From Alphaproteobacteria bacterium (GTDB lineage Bacteria > Pseudomonadota > Alphaproteobacteria > UBA6615): DNA of 64,000 bases. The DNA lies in contig JAKUPN010000006.1 of the NCBI GenBank assembly GCA_022449545.1, positions 13 to 64,012 of the forward strand, given 5' to 3'. Position numbers and translations under genes: made by a program. The notes beneath the pieces were generated by a model that saw only the letters and a list, made by a program, of their open reading frames with translations, ran no database searches and was not told the DNA's origin. Shown one piece after another: positions 1,988 to 9,149 of this stretch (position 1 is its first letter; every line of letters starts with the position of its first letter).

Positions 1988-2560
1988 TTATTCTTTTACG
2001 CGCATGACTTTTAATGCATTAGCCCATCTTGCTAGCTCGGGAAGCAAGATTTTTGCTGATTCAATATGTATTTCTTTTGGAAGGAAAACACCATCATTAA
2101 TGTGTTCTGATACCATTGGAATTGGAACAGCCTCAAAAATTGGAACAACTCTAAATGTAGTTAGTAAAAGTTTTTCCATTTGTACTCCCCTTAAACCTCC
2201 TGAAACACCCCCATAGCTAACAAATGCGGCAGGCTTATAATGCCACTCTGACGCTAAATAGGTCAAAGCATTAACAAATGATGGTGGGGGTCCATAATTA
2301 TATTCTGGGGTTACAAAAACATAAGCATCAGCAGCGTCTACGCTTTTGCTCCACACTTTAGTTTCTTCGTTTTCGTATTCGCCATACCTGGGATGTTTTG
2401 GTTCATTAAAAACAGGCAGGTTGAAGTCGAGAAGGTCAATATTTGTGACATCATAAACATGATCAAATTCATTTGATGCATAGTCAACAAACCATTTTGC
2501 TATTGCTGGTCCAATTCTTGTCGGCCGAGTGCTCACGGTTATGACATTTAACTTAAGCAT
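1988..2560 (-). CDS. NAD(P)H-dependent FMN reductase family protein (SsuE/ChrR/YieF-like flavodoxin fold)
   Basis: 190 aa. Family pattern LKLNVITVSTRP...YVFVTPEYNYGPPPSFVNALTYL...FVSYGGVSGG is typical of NADPH:FMN reductases. Confidence 0.8.
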   Translation of the reverse strand: MLKLNVITVSTRPTRIGPAIAKWFVDYASNEFDHVYDVTNIDLLDFNLPVFNEPKHPRYGEYENEETKVWSKSVDAADAYVFVTPEYNYGPPPSFVNALTYLASEWHYKPAAFVSYGGVSGGLRGVQMEKLLLTTFRVVPIFEAVPIPMVSEHINDGVFLPKEIHIESAKILLPELARWANALKVMRVKE

Positions 2561-2596
2561 TTAATCTAAACTCCCATCTATTTTGTAGCATTTGTC

Positions 2597-2630
2597 TAAA
2601 GAAAAGCCCGGCTTACTAGCCGGGCTTTTA
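2597..2630 (-). terminator. Rho-independent terminator for the VOC-dioxygenase gene (minus strand)
   Basis: Perfect 8-bp GC-rich stem AGCCCGGC/GCCGGGCT (2605-2612 / 2619-2626) with a 6-nt loop, followed on the minus strand by TTTTCTTT. It lies 15 nt after the stop at 2648. Confidence 0.6.
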
Positions 2631-2647
2631 GCTTATTAAGACTTCGG

Positions 2648-3607
2648 CTAAGGGCTTACATGCTCTATGAACCTCATGGGAGCTGGTTCACCCCATTGGG
2701 AACCAAATCCCTCCTCAGCTGAAACAAGTTTAGTTCCATAATCAGTATTTAATACATCTGTATCACACCAATGTTCGTGAACTCTATCCCACGGATCCAT
2801 CCAATAATCATAGATTTGGCTTCCCAATACATGTCTGCCTAACCCCCAGACGTGATCGTAGCCTTTTTCTTTGAGATGCTCGTGTCCCATGACAACGTCA
2901 TCAAAGTCTTGTACTTCGTAAGAAAGATGATTTAGTCCGGCTCTTTCATTGTGAACAAAGAGAAAAACGTGGTGATCTACAAATTCTGTTCCTGCGTCAA
3001 TTCGATTGAAACTTGCAATAACTTTATTTTTATCATCCTCAACATAAACTTCATCTGTGCCAACCAGACCAATATGGTGACGCATCCAAGATATTGATTC
3101 AGTTAGTTTTGGGGTGCCTATAACTCCGTGACCTATTCTTTTGGGTTGTGAAGGGCCTTTTGGTTTTCTCCAAAGTTCACCAGCGCGTGCCCGTTTATCT
3201 ACATTTCCAAGGTTATAAGCATGCCGTTCTACCTTGATTGGATCTAAGTCTTCAATACCCCAGACTACTTCTATTCCATATCCGTTTGGCTCTGTTAATA
3301 TAACTCTTTTACCGCCTCCGGGTTCGTCTATCTCATGCACGTCACTAGCGGTCTCTGCTTCAGCTGCCAGTTTATGAAGATCTTCTTCACAAGCGGCATT
3401 AAAAGCTAAACTCACAAAACCCGGATCACCTTTTTCTGTGACGTGAATATGATGATCAGGATCTGTACCACGCATATATAATGCATCATTAGTTCTTTCT
3501 GCGCGAACCATTCCGAAGTTAGTGAGAAACTCTTCCTGTAAGTCTAGATCAGGCGACTTAATTCTTCCCCAAGCTATGTCGGTCACCTTTATAATTGGCT
3601 CAGCCAT
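2648..3607 (-). CDS. two-domain VOC-superfamily protein, extradiol ring-cleavage dioxygenase-like (glyoxalase/bleomycin-resistance fold)
   Basis: 319 aa, about the length of type I extradiol dioxygenases. Conserved His/Glu-rich segments (HIHV, HHIGLVGTDE, HHVFLFVHNE, HLSYEV) are present. No more specific substrate call is possible. Confidence 0.65.
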   Translation of the reverse strand: MAEPIIKVTDIAWGRIKSPDLDLQEEFLTNFGMVRAERTNDALYMRGTDPDHHIHVTEKGDPGFVSLAFNAACEEDLHKLAAEAETASDVHEIDEPGGGKRVILTEPNGYGIEVVWGIEDLDPIKVERHAYNLGNVDKRARAGELWRKPKGPSQPKRIGHGVIGTPKLTESISWMRHHIGLVGTDEVYVEDDKNKVIASFNRIDAGTEFVDHHVFLFVHNERAGLNHLSYEVQDFDDVVMGHEHLKEKGYDHVWGLGRHVLGSQIYDYWMDPWDRVHEHWCDTDVLNTDYGTKLVSAEEGFGSQWGEPAPMRFIEHVSP

Positions 3608-3781
3608 TTTCTCACTCCATATTTCTTTTTTTATTCAGTTTTAAATATGTTAGTTTTTGTATTTATTAGTTATTGTTATAGTTAAGTTAAGAAAAGAATA
3701 AAATCAGTTTTACCAAAATAACCATTAAATTATAGAGATAATAACGCCAGTTGAGCACGAAGGCATTATAAATTTCAAATA

Positions 3782-4414
3782 TTGAGTATAAATATGTTTA
3801 TTGATCCTGCAATTAATATGAAGCCTGAGCCGTTATTGTATAATCCATTCAAGGCTTTAGTAGTGCCCCGGCCTATTGGTTGGATAAGCACTATTAGTTC
3901 AACAGGAGCCGTTAACCTTGCGCCATATAGCTTTTTTAATGGTGTGGCCGATGATCCGCCATGTGTTATGTATTGTCCCAATGGCTCACATCCAGAAGGC
4001 GGGCCAAAAGATAGTTTAAGAAATGTTGAGGAAACGGGGGAATTTGTTTTCAATCTTTGTAATTGGGATTTACATAAAAAGATGAATTTGACTGCTGAAC
4101 ATTTACCTAGAAATGTTGACGAGATGACAAAATCAGGCTTAGAGCCAATGAGTTGCAATAAAGTTAAACCTCCTCGTGTTGCTGTTGCCCCTGCTGCGTT
4201 TGAATGTAGATATTTAGAAACGGTTAAATTGCCAATTGGGCGCAGTGGAAGAGAAAACAATCTGGTGCTTGGAGAGGTGGTTGGAATACATATTGATGAA
4301 TCTGTTATAAATGATGGAATGGTTGATATTAGTTTGTTAAAACCAGTCGCAAGATTGGGCTATATGGATTATACAGTCGTGACTGAATCTTTTACTATGG
4401 AACGTCCTGACTAA
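3782..4414 (+). CDS. flavin reductase-like domain protein (FMN-binding split-barrel, NADH:flavin oxidoreductase component family)
   Basis: 210 aa. PFKALVVPRPIGWISTISSTGAVNLAPYSFFNGVADDPPCVMYCP matches the flavin_reduct domain signature. It is co-directional with, and 150 nt upstream of, the nitrile-hydratase-family operon. Confidence 0.75.
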   Translation: MSINMFIDPAINMKPEPLLYNPFKALVVPRPIGWISTISSTGAVNLAPYSFFNGVADDPPCVMYCPNGSHPEGGPKDSLRNVEETGEFVFNLCNWDLHKKMNLTAEHLPRNVDEMTKSGLEPMSCNKVKPPRVAVAPAAFECRYLETVKLPIGRSGRENNLVLGEVVGIHIDESVINDGMVDISLLKPVARLGYMDYTVVTESFTMERPD

Positions 4415-4428
4415 TTATTGCTATATAA

Positions 4429-4448
4429 ATTTTATTGAATTTTATTGA
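4429..4448. promoter_or_regulatory. perfect 10-bp tandem direct repeat (ATTTTATTGA x2) flanked by an imperfect inverted repeat (CTATATAAAT / ATAAATTATATAG), upstream of the NHase-family operon
   Basis: Seen directly at 4421-4465, in the 150-nt gap between the flavin-reductase-like gene and the first NHase-family gene. Candidate regulator-binding site, but AT-rich background lowers its significance. Confidence 0.25.
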
Positions 4449-4564
4449 GAATATAAATTATATAGTGATTTAGAGACAATTATTAATTCAGGATTGAAAA
4501 AACAGATAACTTTTATACCTCGACTTAATGTATTTTGCGAAGGTATCAGACCAGGAGAGATTAT

Positions 4565-4888
4565 ATGAGGGGACCACAAGATTATGGCGGATTGCCTGCA
4601 GGGCTGGTTGACCCTGTCAAGAATGAGCATGAGCCTACTCACTGGGAAAGACGTGTTGACGCAATTATGTTACTTCTTTTTGATCCCAAGAGAAGATTGG
4701 CGCGAGTGGATGAATCACGTCGTATGCAAGAAGCTCTGGGAGATGATTATCATAAATATCCTTATTATGAACGCTGGTTGCAAGCTATTACATGGCTGCT
4801 GCTTGAAAAAGGAGTTTTCTCACAAGAAGAGCTTGATAAAAAGAGAGAAGAAGTAAGAGCTAGACTAGAGGCTGAAAGAAATGGATAG
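4565..4888 (+). CDS. nitrile hydratase family beta subunit, N-terminal-half polypeptide (split beta; thiocyanate hydrolase beta / ToyK-ToyL-like arrangement)
   Basis: From the ATG at 4565 (GGAGAG 7 nt upstream): MRGPQDYGGLPAGLVDP...THWERRVDAIMLL...YYERWLQAI.... The N-terminus matches the NHase beta N-terminus (MNGVHDLGG / MDGIHDTGG) and the conserved Arg (WERR) is present. The product ends after the helix that precedes the beta-subunit linker. The open frame extends to 4535, but the earlier Met lacks an RBS. Confidence 0.8.
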   Translation: MRGPQDYGGLPAGLVDPVKNEHEPTHWERRVDAIMLLLFDPKRRLARVDESRRMQEALGDDYHKYPYYERWLQAITWLLLEKGVFSQEELDKKREEVRARLEAERNG

Positions 4889-5165
4889 TAAGTTTAGCCC
4901 AGGAGATAAAGTTCGAGTAATGGAGCGCAGTCAACCTGGGCATGTTAGAACACCTATGTATGTTCGTGGCAAATCGGGAGTGATAGAAAGGATAGTAGGT
5001 CCCCAACCTAATCCTGAGACATTGGCATATGGCCAGTCCGGACTTCCTTATAAAATGCTTTATAGAGTCAATTTTTCACAAAAAGTATTGTGGCCTGATT
5101 ATGAGGGTGAAGATAATGATTCTCTTGAAATTGAGATCTATGAGCATTGGCTAGAGCAGGTATAG
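4881..5165 (+). CDS. nitrile hydratase family beta subunit, C-terminal-half polypeptide
   Basis: 94 aa, FSPGDKVRVMERSQPGHVRTPMYVRGKSGVIERIV...PYKMLYRVNFSQKVLWPDYEG...EIEIYEHWLE. It aligns to the C-terminal beta-barrel of NHase beta ([29 protein letters not shown]...LYTVAFSAQELWG...WEPYL). The start ATG overlaps the upstream stop by 8 nt (ATGGATAG), and GAGG lies 10 nt upstream. Confidence 0.8.
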   Translation: MDSKFSPGDKVRVMERSQPGHVRTPMYVRGKSGVIERIVGPQPNPETLAYGQSGLPYKMLYRVNFSQKVLWPDYEGEDNDSLEIEIYEHWLEQV

Positions 5166-5198
5166 TTTAATAAATTTATATAATATGAGAGAAAAAAA

Positions 5199-5849
5199 AT
5201 GAGCGAACATCATCACGATCATCTAAATGCTACGCACACTCATGATGGTAAACCGATCCAGAACGATGAGCCACCTTCTATTGAGGCAGAATCTCTTGAA
5301 ACTGCTGTAAGAGAATTGTTGATGGAAAAGGGTGTGATAACTGCTGATGAATTACGTGGCGCTATTGAAACACAGGAACAAAGGAGACCCGAGCTTGGTG
5401 CGAAAATCATTGCACGTGCATGGGTTGATGAAGACTTCAAACAAAAATTATTGAGTCATGGAGATATGGCTGTTCGTTCCTTTGGTGTAGACATGAAGCC
5501 CACTGAACTATGTGTCGTAGAAAACACAGAGGAGGTTCATAACTTGGTTGTTTGCACTTTATGTTCTTGTTATCCGAGAGCTATTTTAGGGATTCCTCCG
5601 GCGTGGTACAAACGCAGGGATTATAGGTCCAGAGCCGTGCGTGAGCCAAGATCTGTTTTATCTGAGTTCGGTACAATTATTTCAGAAGATAGACAGGTAA
5701 GAGTGCATGATAGTAATGCCGATTTGCGTTACTTGGTGCTTCCGAGGCGTCCCCCTGGAACCGATGATTGGAGCGAAGAAGACTTGACCGAGTTAATTAC
5801 CAGAGACAGCATGATAGGTGTGTCTGAGGCGATTACTCCCGGTGAGTGA
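5199..5849 (+). CDS. nitrile hydratase family alpha subunit, cobalt-type metal-binding motif (VCTLCSCY), with His-rich N-terminal extension
   Basis: 216 aa. AKIIARAWVDEDFKQ...VVCTLCSCYPRAILGIPPAWYKRRDYRSRAVREPRSVL...GTDDWSEEDLTELITRDSMIGV aligns nearly residue-for-residue to Co-type NHase alpha of Rhodococcus rhodochrous J1. The N-terminus is MSEHHHDHLNATHTHDG. Confidence 0.9.
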   Translation: MSEHHHDHLNATHTHDGKPIQNDEPPSIEAESLETAVRELLMEKGVITADELRGAIETQEQRRPELGAKIIARAWVDEDFKQKLLSHGDMAVRSFGVDMKPTELCVVENTEEVHNLVVCTLCSCYPRAILGIPPAWYKRRDYRSRAVREPRSVLSEFGTIISEDRQVRVHDSNADLRYLVLPRRPPGTDDWSEEDLTELITRDSMIGVSEAITPGE

Positions 5850-6045
5850 TTTGATGACTAATATCTTCATTGATTAATATCCCTAACATTTATATTGAAT
5901 CATCTAGTAATTAGTGATTCTATGTAGCCAAGAATCATACTTTATTTAATCTTCATTAAGGTTTGTGAAAGATTACTTGTTTAGTCAACTAACTAGTATG
6001 ATTAATTGAATATAATTAATAACCCTACAAAAGTTCTGTGATCTT

Positions 6046-7404
6046 ATGAAAAAGTTTTTCAGTACGAAAAATAGACTGATCGAATTGATTTCAACTCATT
6101 TAAGACTGATTTGTATGTCAGTGGTATTTGTGGGGTTTTTATTATGGGGGTATTTGATAACAGATATAAATCTGACTAATAAAAAAGAATTAGATCAACA
6201 GCAAACTAAAATAGCTGATAGCCTTAAGTCTATAAATAAAATTGAAAACGTAATATCTGGTCTCAATGATAGAGTGACAGAAACGAATAAGAAGAGAGCT
6301 GATGATATTGCTAATTTAAATAAATCTCTTTCAAGTAAATCTAATTTAGAAAAAGAAATTGTTCGTTTAAAAAAATTAGGTGAAAGAAAGGATTTTACAA
6401 TAGCTAAGGTTTTAAATGAACTAGACAAAACCAACATACGCGAAAAAGAAAATGTTAAACGTTTAGCGAGTTTCACTGAAATTAATTCTTTACTTATCAA
6501 AGAGAGGAACAAACTTCGTAAAGAAGTTGAAAATAAGAGTGTTCTGTTAGAAGAAACCAATAAGAGATTAAAGAAAACTGACGATAACAATAACACCTTA
6601 TTACAACGCTTGAAGAAATCCCGAAAGACAACATCTACATTATTGCTTCGAAAGTCTGATAAAACACACAACTCAAAACATGAAAGTGCTTTAATCGAAA
6701 AGTATAATAATCGTTACAGTTCCGCCGATATATCTAAAGAGGGGGTTTTATCAAGGCTATATCAAATTACTGATAAGACAGTTGAATCTTTAGAAAGGGC
6801 TTTGCAGGTATCAGGGTTAAATTCTAACTTGTTGATAAAAAGGGCGTTGTCTAAAGAAGATTATTTTATTAGTGGTCGGGGTGGGCCATTCATTAAATTA
6901 AATGATAAATTTGACAAAAATTTAAAAATTACTTTTGTAGAACCTGAACATAAAGTAATTAGATTAATAGGGCTCCAAGAAGTAATGAAACGGATTCCAT
7001 TAGCCGCGCCGCTAGATGAGCTGCGTGTAAGTAGTGGTTTTGGAAAACGAATAGATCCATTCACAAACCAATTAGCAATGCATCCAGGTATAGATTTTGC
7101 CTCCAGAAACACAAGCACTATTTTTGTAACTGCACCAGGAGTTGTGACTTTTGTTGGGTGGAATGGCGGGTTTGGAAAAATGGTAGAAGTTGATCACGGA
7201 TTGGGAATTACTACTAGGTATGCGCATTTATCAAAAATATTCGTAAAACCTGGTCAGAAATTAAAATTTAGAGAAAGATTAGGACAGGTTGGCAATACAG
7301 GCAGAAGTACTGGATCTCATTTACATTATGAGATTTTATTTGATGGGAAAGAAATGGATCCTCAAAGATTCCTCAGAGCCGGCCAGTATCTTTTCAAGAC
7401 ATAG
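6046..7404 (+). CDS. M23 family metallopeptidase (EnvC/NlpD-like murein hydrolase factor) with N-terminal TM segment and a long coiled-coil region
   Basis: 452 aa. The C-terminal LytM/M23 domain reads HPGIDFA...GWNGGFGKMVEVDHGLGITTRYAHL...GNTGRSTGSHLHYEI. The middle 200 aa are K/E/L-rich coiled coil. Confidence 0.85.
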   Translation: MKKFFSTKNRLIELISTHLRLICMSVVFVGFLLWGYLITDINLTNKKELDQQQTKIADSLKSINKIENVISGLNDRVTETNKKRADDIANLNKSLSSKSNLEKEIVRLKKLGERKDFTIAKVLNELDKTNIREKENVKRLASFTEINSLLIKERNKLRKEVENKSVLLEETNKRLKKTDDNNNTLLQRLKKSRKTTSTLLLRKSDKTHNSKHESALIEKYNNRYSSADISKEGVLSRLYQITDKTVESLERALQVSGLNSNLLIKRALSKEDYFISGRGGPFIKLNDKFDKNLKITFVEPEHKVIRLIGLQEVMKRIPLAAPLDELRVSSGFGKRIDPFTNQLAMHPGIDFASRNTSTIFVTAPGVVTFVGWNGGFGKMVEVDHGLGITTRYAHLSKIFVKPGQKLKFRERLGQVGNTGRSTGSHLHYEILFDGKEMDPQRFLRAGQYLFKT

Positions 7405-7454
7405 AATTAGCGAAATAATATATTTAGATCTTGTCTAGCTATTAACTTAATAAA

Positions 7455-8456
7455 CTATTTTATAACTTTTGAATAAAACACAGGATCAACATTGGCTCCT
7501 GATAATATAACTACGCTAGTTAGTTTAGAGAAATGTTTTTTATGCTTTAGAATAGCAGCTAAGGCTACTGCACCACTTGGCTCAACGACAAGCTTAAGAT
7601 ATTTCCAGGAAAAAGACATCGCTTTTATTACGTCTTCATCTGTAACGGCAATGCCACCCGAAACTAATTCTTTGTTAATGGAAAAGGTTAGGTTACCTGG
7701 GCTCTGTGCCAGTAGAGCATCACAAATGGACTTTGTTTTAATCTTATTTTTTAATATTTTTCTTTCTTTGAGTGATCGAGTTGTATCATCATAACCAACT
7801 GGTTCTACAACAATAATCTCGGAAGCTGGGGATTTTTCACTGACAACTGTGGCTATGCCGGCAGTAAGTCCACCACCTCCGCAGCATATTAATATTCTGT
7901 TGGCATATAGGCCTATTCTATCTAGTTTATCTATTATTTCGGCACCTACAGTTCCTTGCCCGGATATTGTCCACGGGTGGTCGTAGGGAGGTATAATGGT
8001 GGAGCCTGTTTTTTTAGAAAAATTACTGGCTATCTCTTCACGGTTTTCTTTTTCTCGTTCGAAGGTTATTACTTCAGCACCTAGAATACGCGTTTGATTT
8101 AATTTTATGCTTGGTGCATCTGAAGGCATTATTATTGTAGACTTGATTTTTAGTAGCTTTGCGGCAGCAGCGACACCCTGAGCATGATTTCCTGATGAAT
8201 ATGCTACTACTCCATTTTTCTTATGACTTTCATTTAGTTGAGCTAGAAAATTATAGGCACCTCGAAATTTAAATGAACCAGTGTGTTGTAAAGTCTCCGC
8301 TTTGAGAAAAACTCTTCCGCCTACTAGTTCATTCAAATAGTTATTTTCAATTAATGGAGTTTTAACCGCAATATTATATAGGCGTTTTGATGCTGCTAAT
8401 ACGTCTTCATAACTGGGGCGGGCTTTAGATAAAGGATCCATCTTTAAATCACTCAA
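7455..8456 (-). CDS. PLP-dependent serine/threonine dehydratase family (threonine ammonia-lyase / serine racemase-like)
   Basis: 333 aa. PLP lysine motif ETLQHTGSFKFRGAYN, glycine-rich loop GGGGL, and SSGNHAQGVA. Confidence 0.75.
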   Translation of the reverse strand: MSDLKMDPLSKARPSYEDVLAASKRLYNIAVKTPLIENNYLNELVGGRVFLKAETLQHTGSFKFRGAYNFLAQLNESHKKNGVVAYSSGNHAQGVAAAAKLLKIKSTIIMPSDAPSIKLNQTRILGAEVITFEREKENREEIASNFSKKTGSTIIPPYDHPWTISGQGTVGAEIIDKLDRIGLYANRILICCGGGGLTAGIATVVSEKSPASEIIVVEPVGYDDTTRSLKERKILKNKIKTKSICDALLAQSPGNLTFSINKELVSGGIAVTDEDVIKAMSFSWKYLKLVVEPSGAVALAAILKHKKHFSKLTSVVILSGANVDPVFYSKVIK

Positions 8457-8462
8457 AATCTC

Positions 8463-9149
8463 TTAAGTTAGATCATCAAGAGAGTTTATTATCAAATCTG
8501 GTTGATAAGGTAATTTCTCAGAAATTAGTCTATTTCTATTAACCCAAACACTATAAAAGCCAAAACTTTTAGCTCCCGCCACGTCCCAATTATTAGCTGA
8601 AACAAAACAAACATCACTTTTATTAATTTTTAGTTTATCAATTACCAGTTGATAAACTAAAGGACTGGGTTTGTAGATCTCTATATCATCAATGGAAATA
8701 GTTAAGTCGATTAAGCTGTCCAAACCAGAGTTTTTAATCACTTCATTAAGCATTTGGTGTGTGCCGTTTGATAGTATGGCTATTTTACAGTCTTTTCTTC
8801 TTAAAGAGTTAAGGGAGTGATTTACTTCGTGAAATGTCTTCAATTTAAGGTATAGATTCATGAGTTGAGAATGCATTTTAGAGTTATTTATACCGACGGA
8901 TTCCATTGCATAATTTAACGCCTCTTTGGTGATTATCCAAAAGTCGGAATAGGAGCCCATCATACTATGAAGCCAAGTATATTGAATTTGTTTTTCTCTC
9001 CATATTTTAGAGAGCTCTTCTGATCTATCACCTATAATGTGATTGTATTCTCTTACAGCAGAGTGGAAATCAAACAATGTGCCGTAAGCATCAAAGACAT
9101 ATGCTTGATAACTAATTGTGTTATCAGAGTTTTCATGACTATATGACAC
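8463..9149 (-). CDS. HAD-superfamily hydrolase, haloacid dehalogenase type II-like
   Basis: 228 aa. HAD motif I YVFDAYGTLFD, ILSNG, and motif III/IV ...KPSP...FVSANNWDVAGAKSFGF as in (S)-2-haloacid dehalogenases. It sits 6 nt upstream of, and co-directional with, the dehydratase gene. Confidence 0.7.
   Translation of the reverse strand: MSYSHENSDNTISYQAYVFDAYGTLFDFHSAVREYNHIIGDRSEELSKIWREKQIQYTWLHSMMGSYSDFWIITKEALNYAMESVGINNSKMHSQLMNLYLKLKTFHEVNHSLNSLRRKDCKIAILSNGTHQMLNEVIKNSGLDSLIDLTISIDDIEIYKPSPLVYQLVIDKLKINKSDVCFVSANNWDVAGAKSFGFYSVWVNRNRLISEKLPYQPDLIINSLDDLT

Follow-up and report, generated by a model that had tools for sequence, protein, structure and literature searches.

The DNA analysed here, a 64-kb stretch (hereafter the window) of contig JAKUPN010000006.1 from an alphaproteobacterium of the UBA6615 lineage (assembly GCA_022449545.1), carries a compact operon of three open reading frames (ORFs) that we predict, with good confidence, to encode a cobalt-dependent three-subunit nitrile hydratase (NHase) of the AnhD-AnhE-AnhA type. 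The beta subunit is divided over two small proteins, the N-terminal half encoded by ORF1 and the C-terminal half by ORF2, and ORF3 encodes the alpha subunit. An earlier reading of the same DNA (the original prediction) had likewise proposed a Co-type enzyme of the NHase family that has three subunits and a naturally split beta, and the comparative data given below bear this out.

Organization of the operon and domain assignments

The three genes are co-directional, with an overlap of 8 nt between ORF1 and ORF2 and a gap of exactly 33 nt (5166-5198) between ORF2 and ORF3 (Table 1), and in these points the original prediction was exact. ORF1 encodes 107 amino acids, not the about 108 first given; its start was set at the ATG at 4565 and not at the upstream TTG at 4535, and homologues begin with MRGPQD. 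A GAGG-type ribosome binding site had been ascribed to each gene. Such sites do precede ORF1 (AGGAG) and ORF2 (GAGG, 4868-4871), but in front of ORF3 there is only GAGAGA (5187-5192). No promoter was identified in the AT-rich region 5' of the operon, as scanning for promoter and terminator consensus sequences returned sites no more numerous than in shuffled sequence.

Pfam assigned ORF1 to PF21006 NHase_beta_N (5.7e-17), ORF2 to PF02211 NHase_beta_C (4.3e-20) and ORF3 to PF02979 NHase_alpha (1e-77), with PF21006 matching ORF1 only and PF02211 matching ORF2 only; the two halves of the beta subunit are already kept as separate families in Pfam. The full-length beta model of NCBIfam, TIGR03888, was covered by ORF1 over positions 1-99 and by ORF2 over positions 137-226, leaving about 37 linker positions of the classical beta subunit absent between the two proteins. 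With 51.2 bits for ORF1 and 66.2 bits for ORF2, neither protein reaches the cut-off of 152.2 for a single classical beta subunit. The alpha subunit matches solved Co-NHase alpha chains in the PDB at about 1e-55, and its residues 118-125 read V-C119-T-L-C122-S-C124-Y, the Co-type motif with the CxLCSC cysteine spacing intact. The Pfam families, TIGR03888 and the metal motif thus agree on the identity of all three subunits as first proposed.

Conservation of the split beta subunit

We scanned one genome per species and obtained 71 loci, a sample that the search pattern, MSEHHHDH, made biased; in each locus the ORFs were re-derived and matched to the three proteins of the window. Among the species-level loci, all 35 whose alpha subunit is 49-97% identical to that of the window have the N-half, the C-half and alpha in separate frames and in the same order. 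These loci come from marine Alphaproteobacteria, metagenome-assembled genomes (MAGs) labelled 'Rhodospirillaceae', Woeseia, a Burkholderiales MAG (with two copies), Laribacter and a Gaiellaceae MAG. The same triad was present in all eight further loci that were reached via C-half homologues, among them Saccharopolyspora soli (L072), a Rhizobiaceae MAG (L078) and three loci with Por_Secre_tail neighbours, which suggests that these three belong to Bacteroidota. The beta subunit is accordingly split in 43 of 43 related loci, and a fused beta gene, which was sought in close relatives, occurs in none of the 35 species-level loci and none of the eight further ones. Loci of Bradyrhizobium, Tardiphaga and Ensifer, with about 50% alpha identity, carry a single fused beta gene after alpha.

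This was further supported by an exhaustive profile search with the N-half, in which 1,094 clusters at 50% identity passed E<=1e-3 and 247 of them passed E<=1e-10. Standalone proteins of at most 160 amino acids make up 131 of the best 150 of these clusters, and at identities as low as about 40-55% both beta halves are still proteins of their own. The split-beta architecture is established and common, with ScNHase of Streptomyces canus as its characterised analogue. A junction of the ORF1/ORF2 type, where an ATG or GTG overlaps the upstream stop codon by 8-11 nt, was seen in 31 of 36 related loci, and this points to translational coupling of the beta halves; in the window, it is the overlap ATGGATAG, holding the upstream stop and the downstream start, that would couple their translation.

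Some N-half relatives (P0287, P0320, P0322 and P0407; P0282, P0288, P0326 and P0355; P0402) have three odd architectures: fusions of N-half and alpha without a C-half domain (about 283-334 amino acids), tandem duplications of the N-half (about 190-210 amino acids) and one linker-less fusion of N-half and C-half (202 amino acids). Modules of the NHase family appear to have been reshuffled often. The Burkholderiales MAG (L033) carries two complete split NHase operons, at 2565-4128 (-) and 7280-8555 (+), about 3 kb apart.

Active-site and pocket residues

The original prediction had pointed to a conserved arginine in the WERR motif of ORF1. That arginine varies among N-half homologues, and the invariant catalytic arginine is instead Arg52 of VDESRR, which together with Tyr67 is invariant in the N-half family alignment (A1) and aligns with Arg56 of ReNHase beta and Arg52 of PtNHase beta. 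Trp71 is also present in ORF1, and the GH(V/T)R motif of ORF2, with Arg23 in GHVRTP, could be aligned across clades.

Three residues past the last claw cysteine of alpha lies Arg127 (CSCYPR), at a position occupied by Trp in classical NHases. In an ungapped alignment Arg127 corresponds to residue 136 of the gamma subunit of thiocyanate hydrolase (SCNase) and to residue 116 of PtNHase alpha. Of two PDB entries altered in this region, 3vyh is a PtNHase chain with Arg at 116 (W116R) and 3vyg is a point mutant of SCNase gamma; against the window stretch, wild-type SCNase scored better than 3vyg and 3vyh better than wild-type PtNHase, each by about 3.6-3.7 bits. Arg was found in every split-type alpha subunit checked (Lys in Gaiellaceae) and Trp in every fused-type alpha subunit, the solved ones included. 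Because it is common to the split-type clade, Arg127 is a hallmark of the split architecture and not of SCNase. Whether Arg or Trp follows CSCYP may offer an easy way to tell split from fused NHases, and the arginine may be a shared derived trait that links SCNase with the three-subunit NHases.

A second pocket position is that of beta Arg90 in SCNase, which aligns with Ser51 of ORF1. The position is Arg in all SCNase-type sequences checked (Thiobacillus thioparus, L034, L063 and L065), S, L, N or K in the split NHase clade, and F, Y, V, S or G in classical enzymes; among representative N-half clusters Leu is the commonest residue and Arg is rare. Ser51 is invariant in the aligned marine sequences (VDESRR). 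Gamma Arg136 and beta Arg90 reportedly set the selectivity of SCNase, as is said to have been described by Yamanaka et al. in 2013.

The N-terminus of the window alpha subunit is His-rich (MSEHHHDH..THTHD). In the marine clade (L001-L032 and L070; 5199-5270 in the window) a stretch THTHDGKPIQ(N/E)D is strongly conserved there, and it is not found in fused-type or SCNase-type alpha subunits. We considered the His-rich N-terminus itself as a mark of activator-less enzymes and rejected this, as fused-type and SCNase-type alpha subunits share it and the sample is biased by the search pattern.

Predicted enzyme and alternative readings

The predicted NHase would probably assemble as (alpha.betaN.betaC)2. 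From what is known of the family, the claw residues Cys119, Cys122 and Cys124, with the backbone amides of Ser123 and Cys124, would bind a non-corrin Co(III), and Cys122 would be oxidised to a sulfinate and Cys124 to a sulfenate, as in known NHases. Arg52 of betaN and Arg23 of betaC would hydrogen-bond to the oxidised cysteines, with Tyr67 and Trp71 also contributed by the N-half, and the enzyme would then convert a nitrile (R-CN) and water to the amide. By analogy with AnhD, the N-half probably doubles as a self-subunit-swapping and metal chaperone, and on the ScNHase analogy the lack of an activator gene can be explained by this chaperone role. Together, Arg127 and Ser51 may lend the pocket a more polar and cationic character than it has in classical Co-NHases.

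Several observations weigh against this assignment. The window alpha subunit scored 244.1 bits on TIGR01323, just under the cut-off of 249.85 of this NHase-alpha equivalog model, and the alpha subunits of the split clade scatter around the cut-off (237-260), so that of the window is not a textbook NHase alpha. Both beta halves are at least as near to SCNase subunits as to the classical beta subunit, and Arg127 is a pocket residue of the SCNase kind. The window also lacks local support for a nitrile pathway, as neither an amidase nor a cobalt transporter nor a nitrile-related regulator is linked to the operon. Finally, the placement in the AnhDEA/ToyJKL subfamily was made through an actinobacterial proxy, S. 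soli, whose alpha subunit is 56% identical to that of the window.

Concerning the substrate, a tentative and rather unlikely possibility is that what the marine clade hydrates is a marine nitrile or pseudohalide, polar or anionic, that has so far gone unrecognised. We consider it because of the vertical inheritance of the operon in pelagic Alphaproteobacteria, the SCNase-like Arg127 and the invariant small polar Ser51. If true, this would be a widespread and overlooked open-ocean route for nitrogen scavenging or detoxification, rather than generic nitrile catabolism.

An NHase specialised for a 7-cyano-7-deazapurine, be it toyocamycin, the substrate of ToyJKL, or preQ0, a precursor of queuosine, seems improbable to us. 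In its favour, ToyJKL offers a precedent for a three-subunit NHase (cited in PMC7329996), the absence of a linked amidase from the window would fit an amide as the end product, and a pocket with Arg127 and Ser51 would be polar. Yet none of the flanking genes identified, over about 6 kb to each side, is for deazapurine biosynthesis or salvage, the neighbourhood is of a housekeeping kind and conserved by synteny and not by function, and other members of the clade lie beside an amidase, an alcohol dehydrogenase or a MIP channel, which suggests small-molecule nitriles.

The original prediction had held that NHase and SCNase could not be told apart from this DNA, but the TIGR03887 score, the tree and Ser51 largely decide against SCNase. 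That the operon encodes an SCNase (SCN- + 2 H2O -> COS + NH3 + OH-) is favoured by the gene order, which equals that of the SCNase-type Laribacter locus (L034), by Arg127, by the best solved match of the N-half family profile (SCNase beta, 2dd4_B, 9.3e-20, 74 bits; classical betas at most 55 bits) and by the top single PDB match of ORF2 (SCNase alpha, 2dd4_A, 1.3e-13, followed by the beta C-terminus of the Pseudomonas putida Co-NHase, 3qxe_B, 7.8e-13). The curated alpha and gamma models point the other way. On TIGR03887 (SCNase gamma, cut-off 291.45) the window alpha subunit reaches only 207.4 bits and the other split-clade alpha subunits tested reach 187-235, in contrast to 338.5 and 371.1 bits for the genuine SCNase-type sequences of Laribacter (L034) and Synechococcaceae (L063), which score 221 and 215 on TIGR01323. 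A classical alpha subunit (L036) gives 315.6 bits on TIGR01323 and 186 on TIGR03887, and taken together the two models separate three groups, namely classical, SCNase-type and split-type NHase.

The same division was seen in a neighbor-joining tree of alpha and gamma subunits, where the window alpha falls with the remaining split-type NHases, those from the actinobacterial S. soli and Gaiellaceae among them, and apart from both the SCNase-type and the classical sequences. In addition, at the position of Ser51 every SCNase-type sequence checked has Arg. The two small proteins of the window (107 and 94 amino acids, vs. 157 and 126 for SCNase beta and alpha) also lack the N-terminal extensions of about 44 and about 32 amino acids, and Arg127 is found throughout the clade, also in members with amidase partners, which makes it no SCNase marker. 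SCNase is thus a very improbable identity for the window enzyme, and thiocyanate is unlikely to be its natural substrate. An SCNase-type enzyme was found in two Synechococcaceae MAGs (L063:2450-3860 and L065:7610-9015), in the order C-half, gamma, N-half-like ORF; its gamma-like subunit scored 371 bits on TIGR03887 (cut-off 291), and the Thr of the metal motif is replaced there by Cys (CCLCSCYPR). This suggests that picocyanobacteria have thiocyanate hydrolase-like enzymes.

That the split is a local frameshift, an assembly error or a pseudogenised beta gene has a negligible probability, the one hint of it being the out-of-frame overlap of the halves, which a frameshift could likewise leave; with the same split and its own junction start codon in every one of the 43 independent loci from several phyla, halves that are conserved as standalone proteins, and a linker that is cleanly missing and not disrupted, an artefact is excluded by the comparative data.

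Genomic setting

The AT-rich host of the original prediction was confirmed (window 37.3% GC), and so were the flavin-reductase neighbours (Table 1). The stretch had further been described as accessory-looking, which does not hold. The NHase genes have 41-45% GC, within the range of dapA and a nearby acyl-CoA dehydrogenase gene, and the order glnS, extradiol-dioxygenase-like gene, flavin reductase, NHase operon, M23 peptidase, pyridoxal phosphate-dependent (PALP) enzyme, HAD hydrolase, dapA and smpB is syntenic in about 25-29 marine alphaproteobacterial MAGs, the individual genes recurring in 20-29 loci. In the closest locus (L031, MarineAlpha12_Bin1) the DNA is colinear and 86% identical over 13.8 kb. 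From this conserved neighbourhood and the colinearity with L031 it follows that the operon is vertically inherited in a core neighbourhood and is not part of an accessory island.

The original prediction had noted no linked activator or amidase, and neither was found in the 64 kb. An amidase signature and a NiCoT motif were absent from the window (motif and phmmer scans only), as was any further NHase-like, activator-like or beta-N-like ORF (phmmer, E<=10). Directly 3' of the operon, 5850-6045 holds no coding gene.

Table 1. Features of the NHase operon and its flanks (positions in the window).
Feature	Position	Strand	Remark
FMN_red (NADPH-dependent FMN reductase)	1988-2560	-	Pfam; between glnS and dioxygenase
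Flavin_Reduct	3782-4414	+	Pfam
AT-rich intergenic region 5' of operon	4415..4564		150 bp; presumed promoter location
Shine-Dalgarno-like AGGAG	4553..4557	+	7 nt 5' of ORF1 ATG; direct sequence reading
ORF1, beta N-half gene (AnhD-like)	4565..4888	+	107 aa
Ser51 codon (ORF1)	4715-4717	+	
Arg52 codon (ORF1)	4718-4720	+	
Tyr67 codon (ORF1)	4763-4765	+	Trp71 also in ORF1
ORF1/ORF2 overlap	4881..4888	+	8 nt, exact
ORF2, beta C-half gene (AnhE-like; SH3-like barrel)	4881..5165	+	94 aa
Arg23 codon (ORF2), second conserved active-site Arg	4947-4949	+	GHVRTP, GH(V/T)R motif
ORF3, Co-type NHase alpha gene (AnhA-like)	5199..5849	+	216 aa
Metal claw Cys119-Thr-Leu-Cys122-Ser123-Cys124-Tyr-Pro-Arg127	5553..5579	+	Arg127 codon 5577-5579

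A functional link of the NHase with the flavin reductase, the extradiol dioxygenase and a TetR regulator was considered and rejected, as the pairing occurs only in the synteny of the marine clade, a divergent gene separates NHase and flavin reductase in many relatives, and other lineages have different neighbours. The association with these neighbours is synteny within one lineage and therefore gives no local clue to function. In S. soli (L072:6938-9348), genes for a MIP-family channel and a NicO Ni/Co transporter come directly after the split NHase genes, with overlapping stop and start codons, which suggests a single operon for uptake plus hydration. At L077 an amidase (PF01425) adjoins the split NHase, and at L078 there are CobW and an amidohydrolase. 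These partners fit cobalt-dependent nitrile catabolism.

Within the marine neighbourhood some genes vary. A protein of 390 amino acids without a Pfam match is encoded on the opposite strand directly 5' of the operon in about 20 marine loci (L001:6001-7170 (-)); its gene is absent from 4415-4564 of the window and from L031. Likewise, a TetR gene between dioxygenase and flavin reductase in 27 relatives (e.g. L001:4770-5336 (+)) is not present in the window or L031. Both carry the FMN reductase gene between glnS and the dioxygenase instead, a minor exchange of genes specific to this lineage, while the neighbourhood otherwise stays fixed. About seven loci carry an AtzH-like gene (PF11533, 3.6e-51) beside glnS (L007:1999-2379 (-)), which the window does not have; the name AtzH comes from a cyanuric-acid pathway enzyme, 1,3-dicarboxyurea amidohydrolase.

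Implications

The operon leaves the current understanding of how the NHase family works unchanged. What it adds is of modest interest, namely the perfect correlation of Arg or Trp with split or fused architecture and the stable inheritance of one sub-branch in marine (pelagic) Alphaproteobacteria. NHases with three subunits and no activator make up a large and ancient branch of the family, and are not a rarity of Streptomyces and Thiobacillus. For annotation this matters, as public records often label the two small proteins of the family 'hypothetical protein' when together with alpha they make up one enzyme, and neither these proteins nor the alpha subunit of the window reach the curated NCBIfam cut-offs. 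Possibly, activator-independent Co-NHases with a polar pocket could also be useful in biocatalysis.

Comparison with known systems

As analogues with a split beta subunit the original prediction had named SCNase and ToyJKL, but it missed the closest characterised one, the ScNHase of Streptomyces canus CGMCC 13662 (Guo et al. 2019/2020). This Co-type enzyme is encoded in the order anhD-anhE-anhA, AnhD and AnhE being the N- and C-terminal parts of beta, in a genome without an activator gene; cobalt can enter AnhA without an activator, AnhD serves as metal and self-subunit-swapping chaperone, and activity was studied with acetamiprid and thiacloprid as substrates (PMC7329996). By this published description the window operon is alike in the order of beta N-half, C-half and alpha, the Co-type, the lack of an activator gene and a small N-half available as chaperone, and the same architecture, with CSCYPR, is found in the actinomycete S. 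soli. It differs in its host, a marine AT-rich alphaproteobacterium. The known substrates of ScNHase are synthetic neonicotinoids. ToyJKL of Streptomyces rimosus (Nelp et al. 2014) is a three-subunit toyocamycin NHase of which alpha alone is active (cited in PMC7329996). As described, it is likewise a Co-type NHase of three polypeptides with beta in two small proteins and no activator, but it belongs to a nucleoside-antibiotic cluster and has a dedicated substrate, and the window has no such cluster.

The SCNase of T. thioparus THI115 (PDB 2dd4) shares with the window three subunits in the same order, the CTLCSC claw and an Arg three residues after the last Cys, and among solved structures it is its beta and alpha subunits that match the two halves best. 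In contrast, the window alpha subunit falls below TIGR03887 and in a separate clade, Ser51 replaces beta Arg90, and the N-terminal extensions are lacking; the reviewed SCNase locus also includes an activator gene (PMC7193024), unlike the window operon. Classical Co-NHases (Pseudonocardia thermophila, 1ire; P. putida, 3qxe) have an alpha subunit about 46% identical to that of the window with the same claw, and the same conserved beta residues (two Arg, Tyr and Trp), so that the chemistry is presumably the same. They differ by a single beta subunit of about 220-230 amino acids with a linker, Trp after CSCYP and the need for a separate activator gene, and in the fused-type loci that we retrieved the order is alpha, beta and accessory protein.

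A beta-alpha NHase is also known from Monosiga brevicollis and other eukaryotes. It has beta before alpha, no activator and a His-rich stretch before alpha, and it is reported to cluster with marine metagenome, actinobacterial and proteobacterial sequences (PMC2603476, PMC3323583). By description it resembles the window enzyme, but it is one fused polypeptide and not three. Foerstner et al. found NHases, with substrates unknown, in every Global Ocean Sampling sample (PMC2603476), and Marron et al. noted a Roseobacter beta subunit that 'appeared truncated' (PMC3323583), which is probably the same split as in the window, unrecognised.

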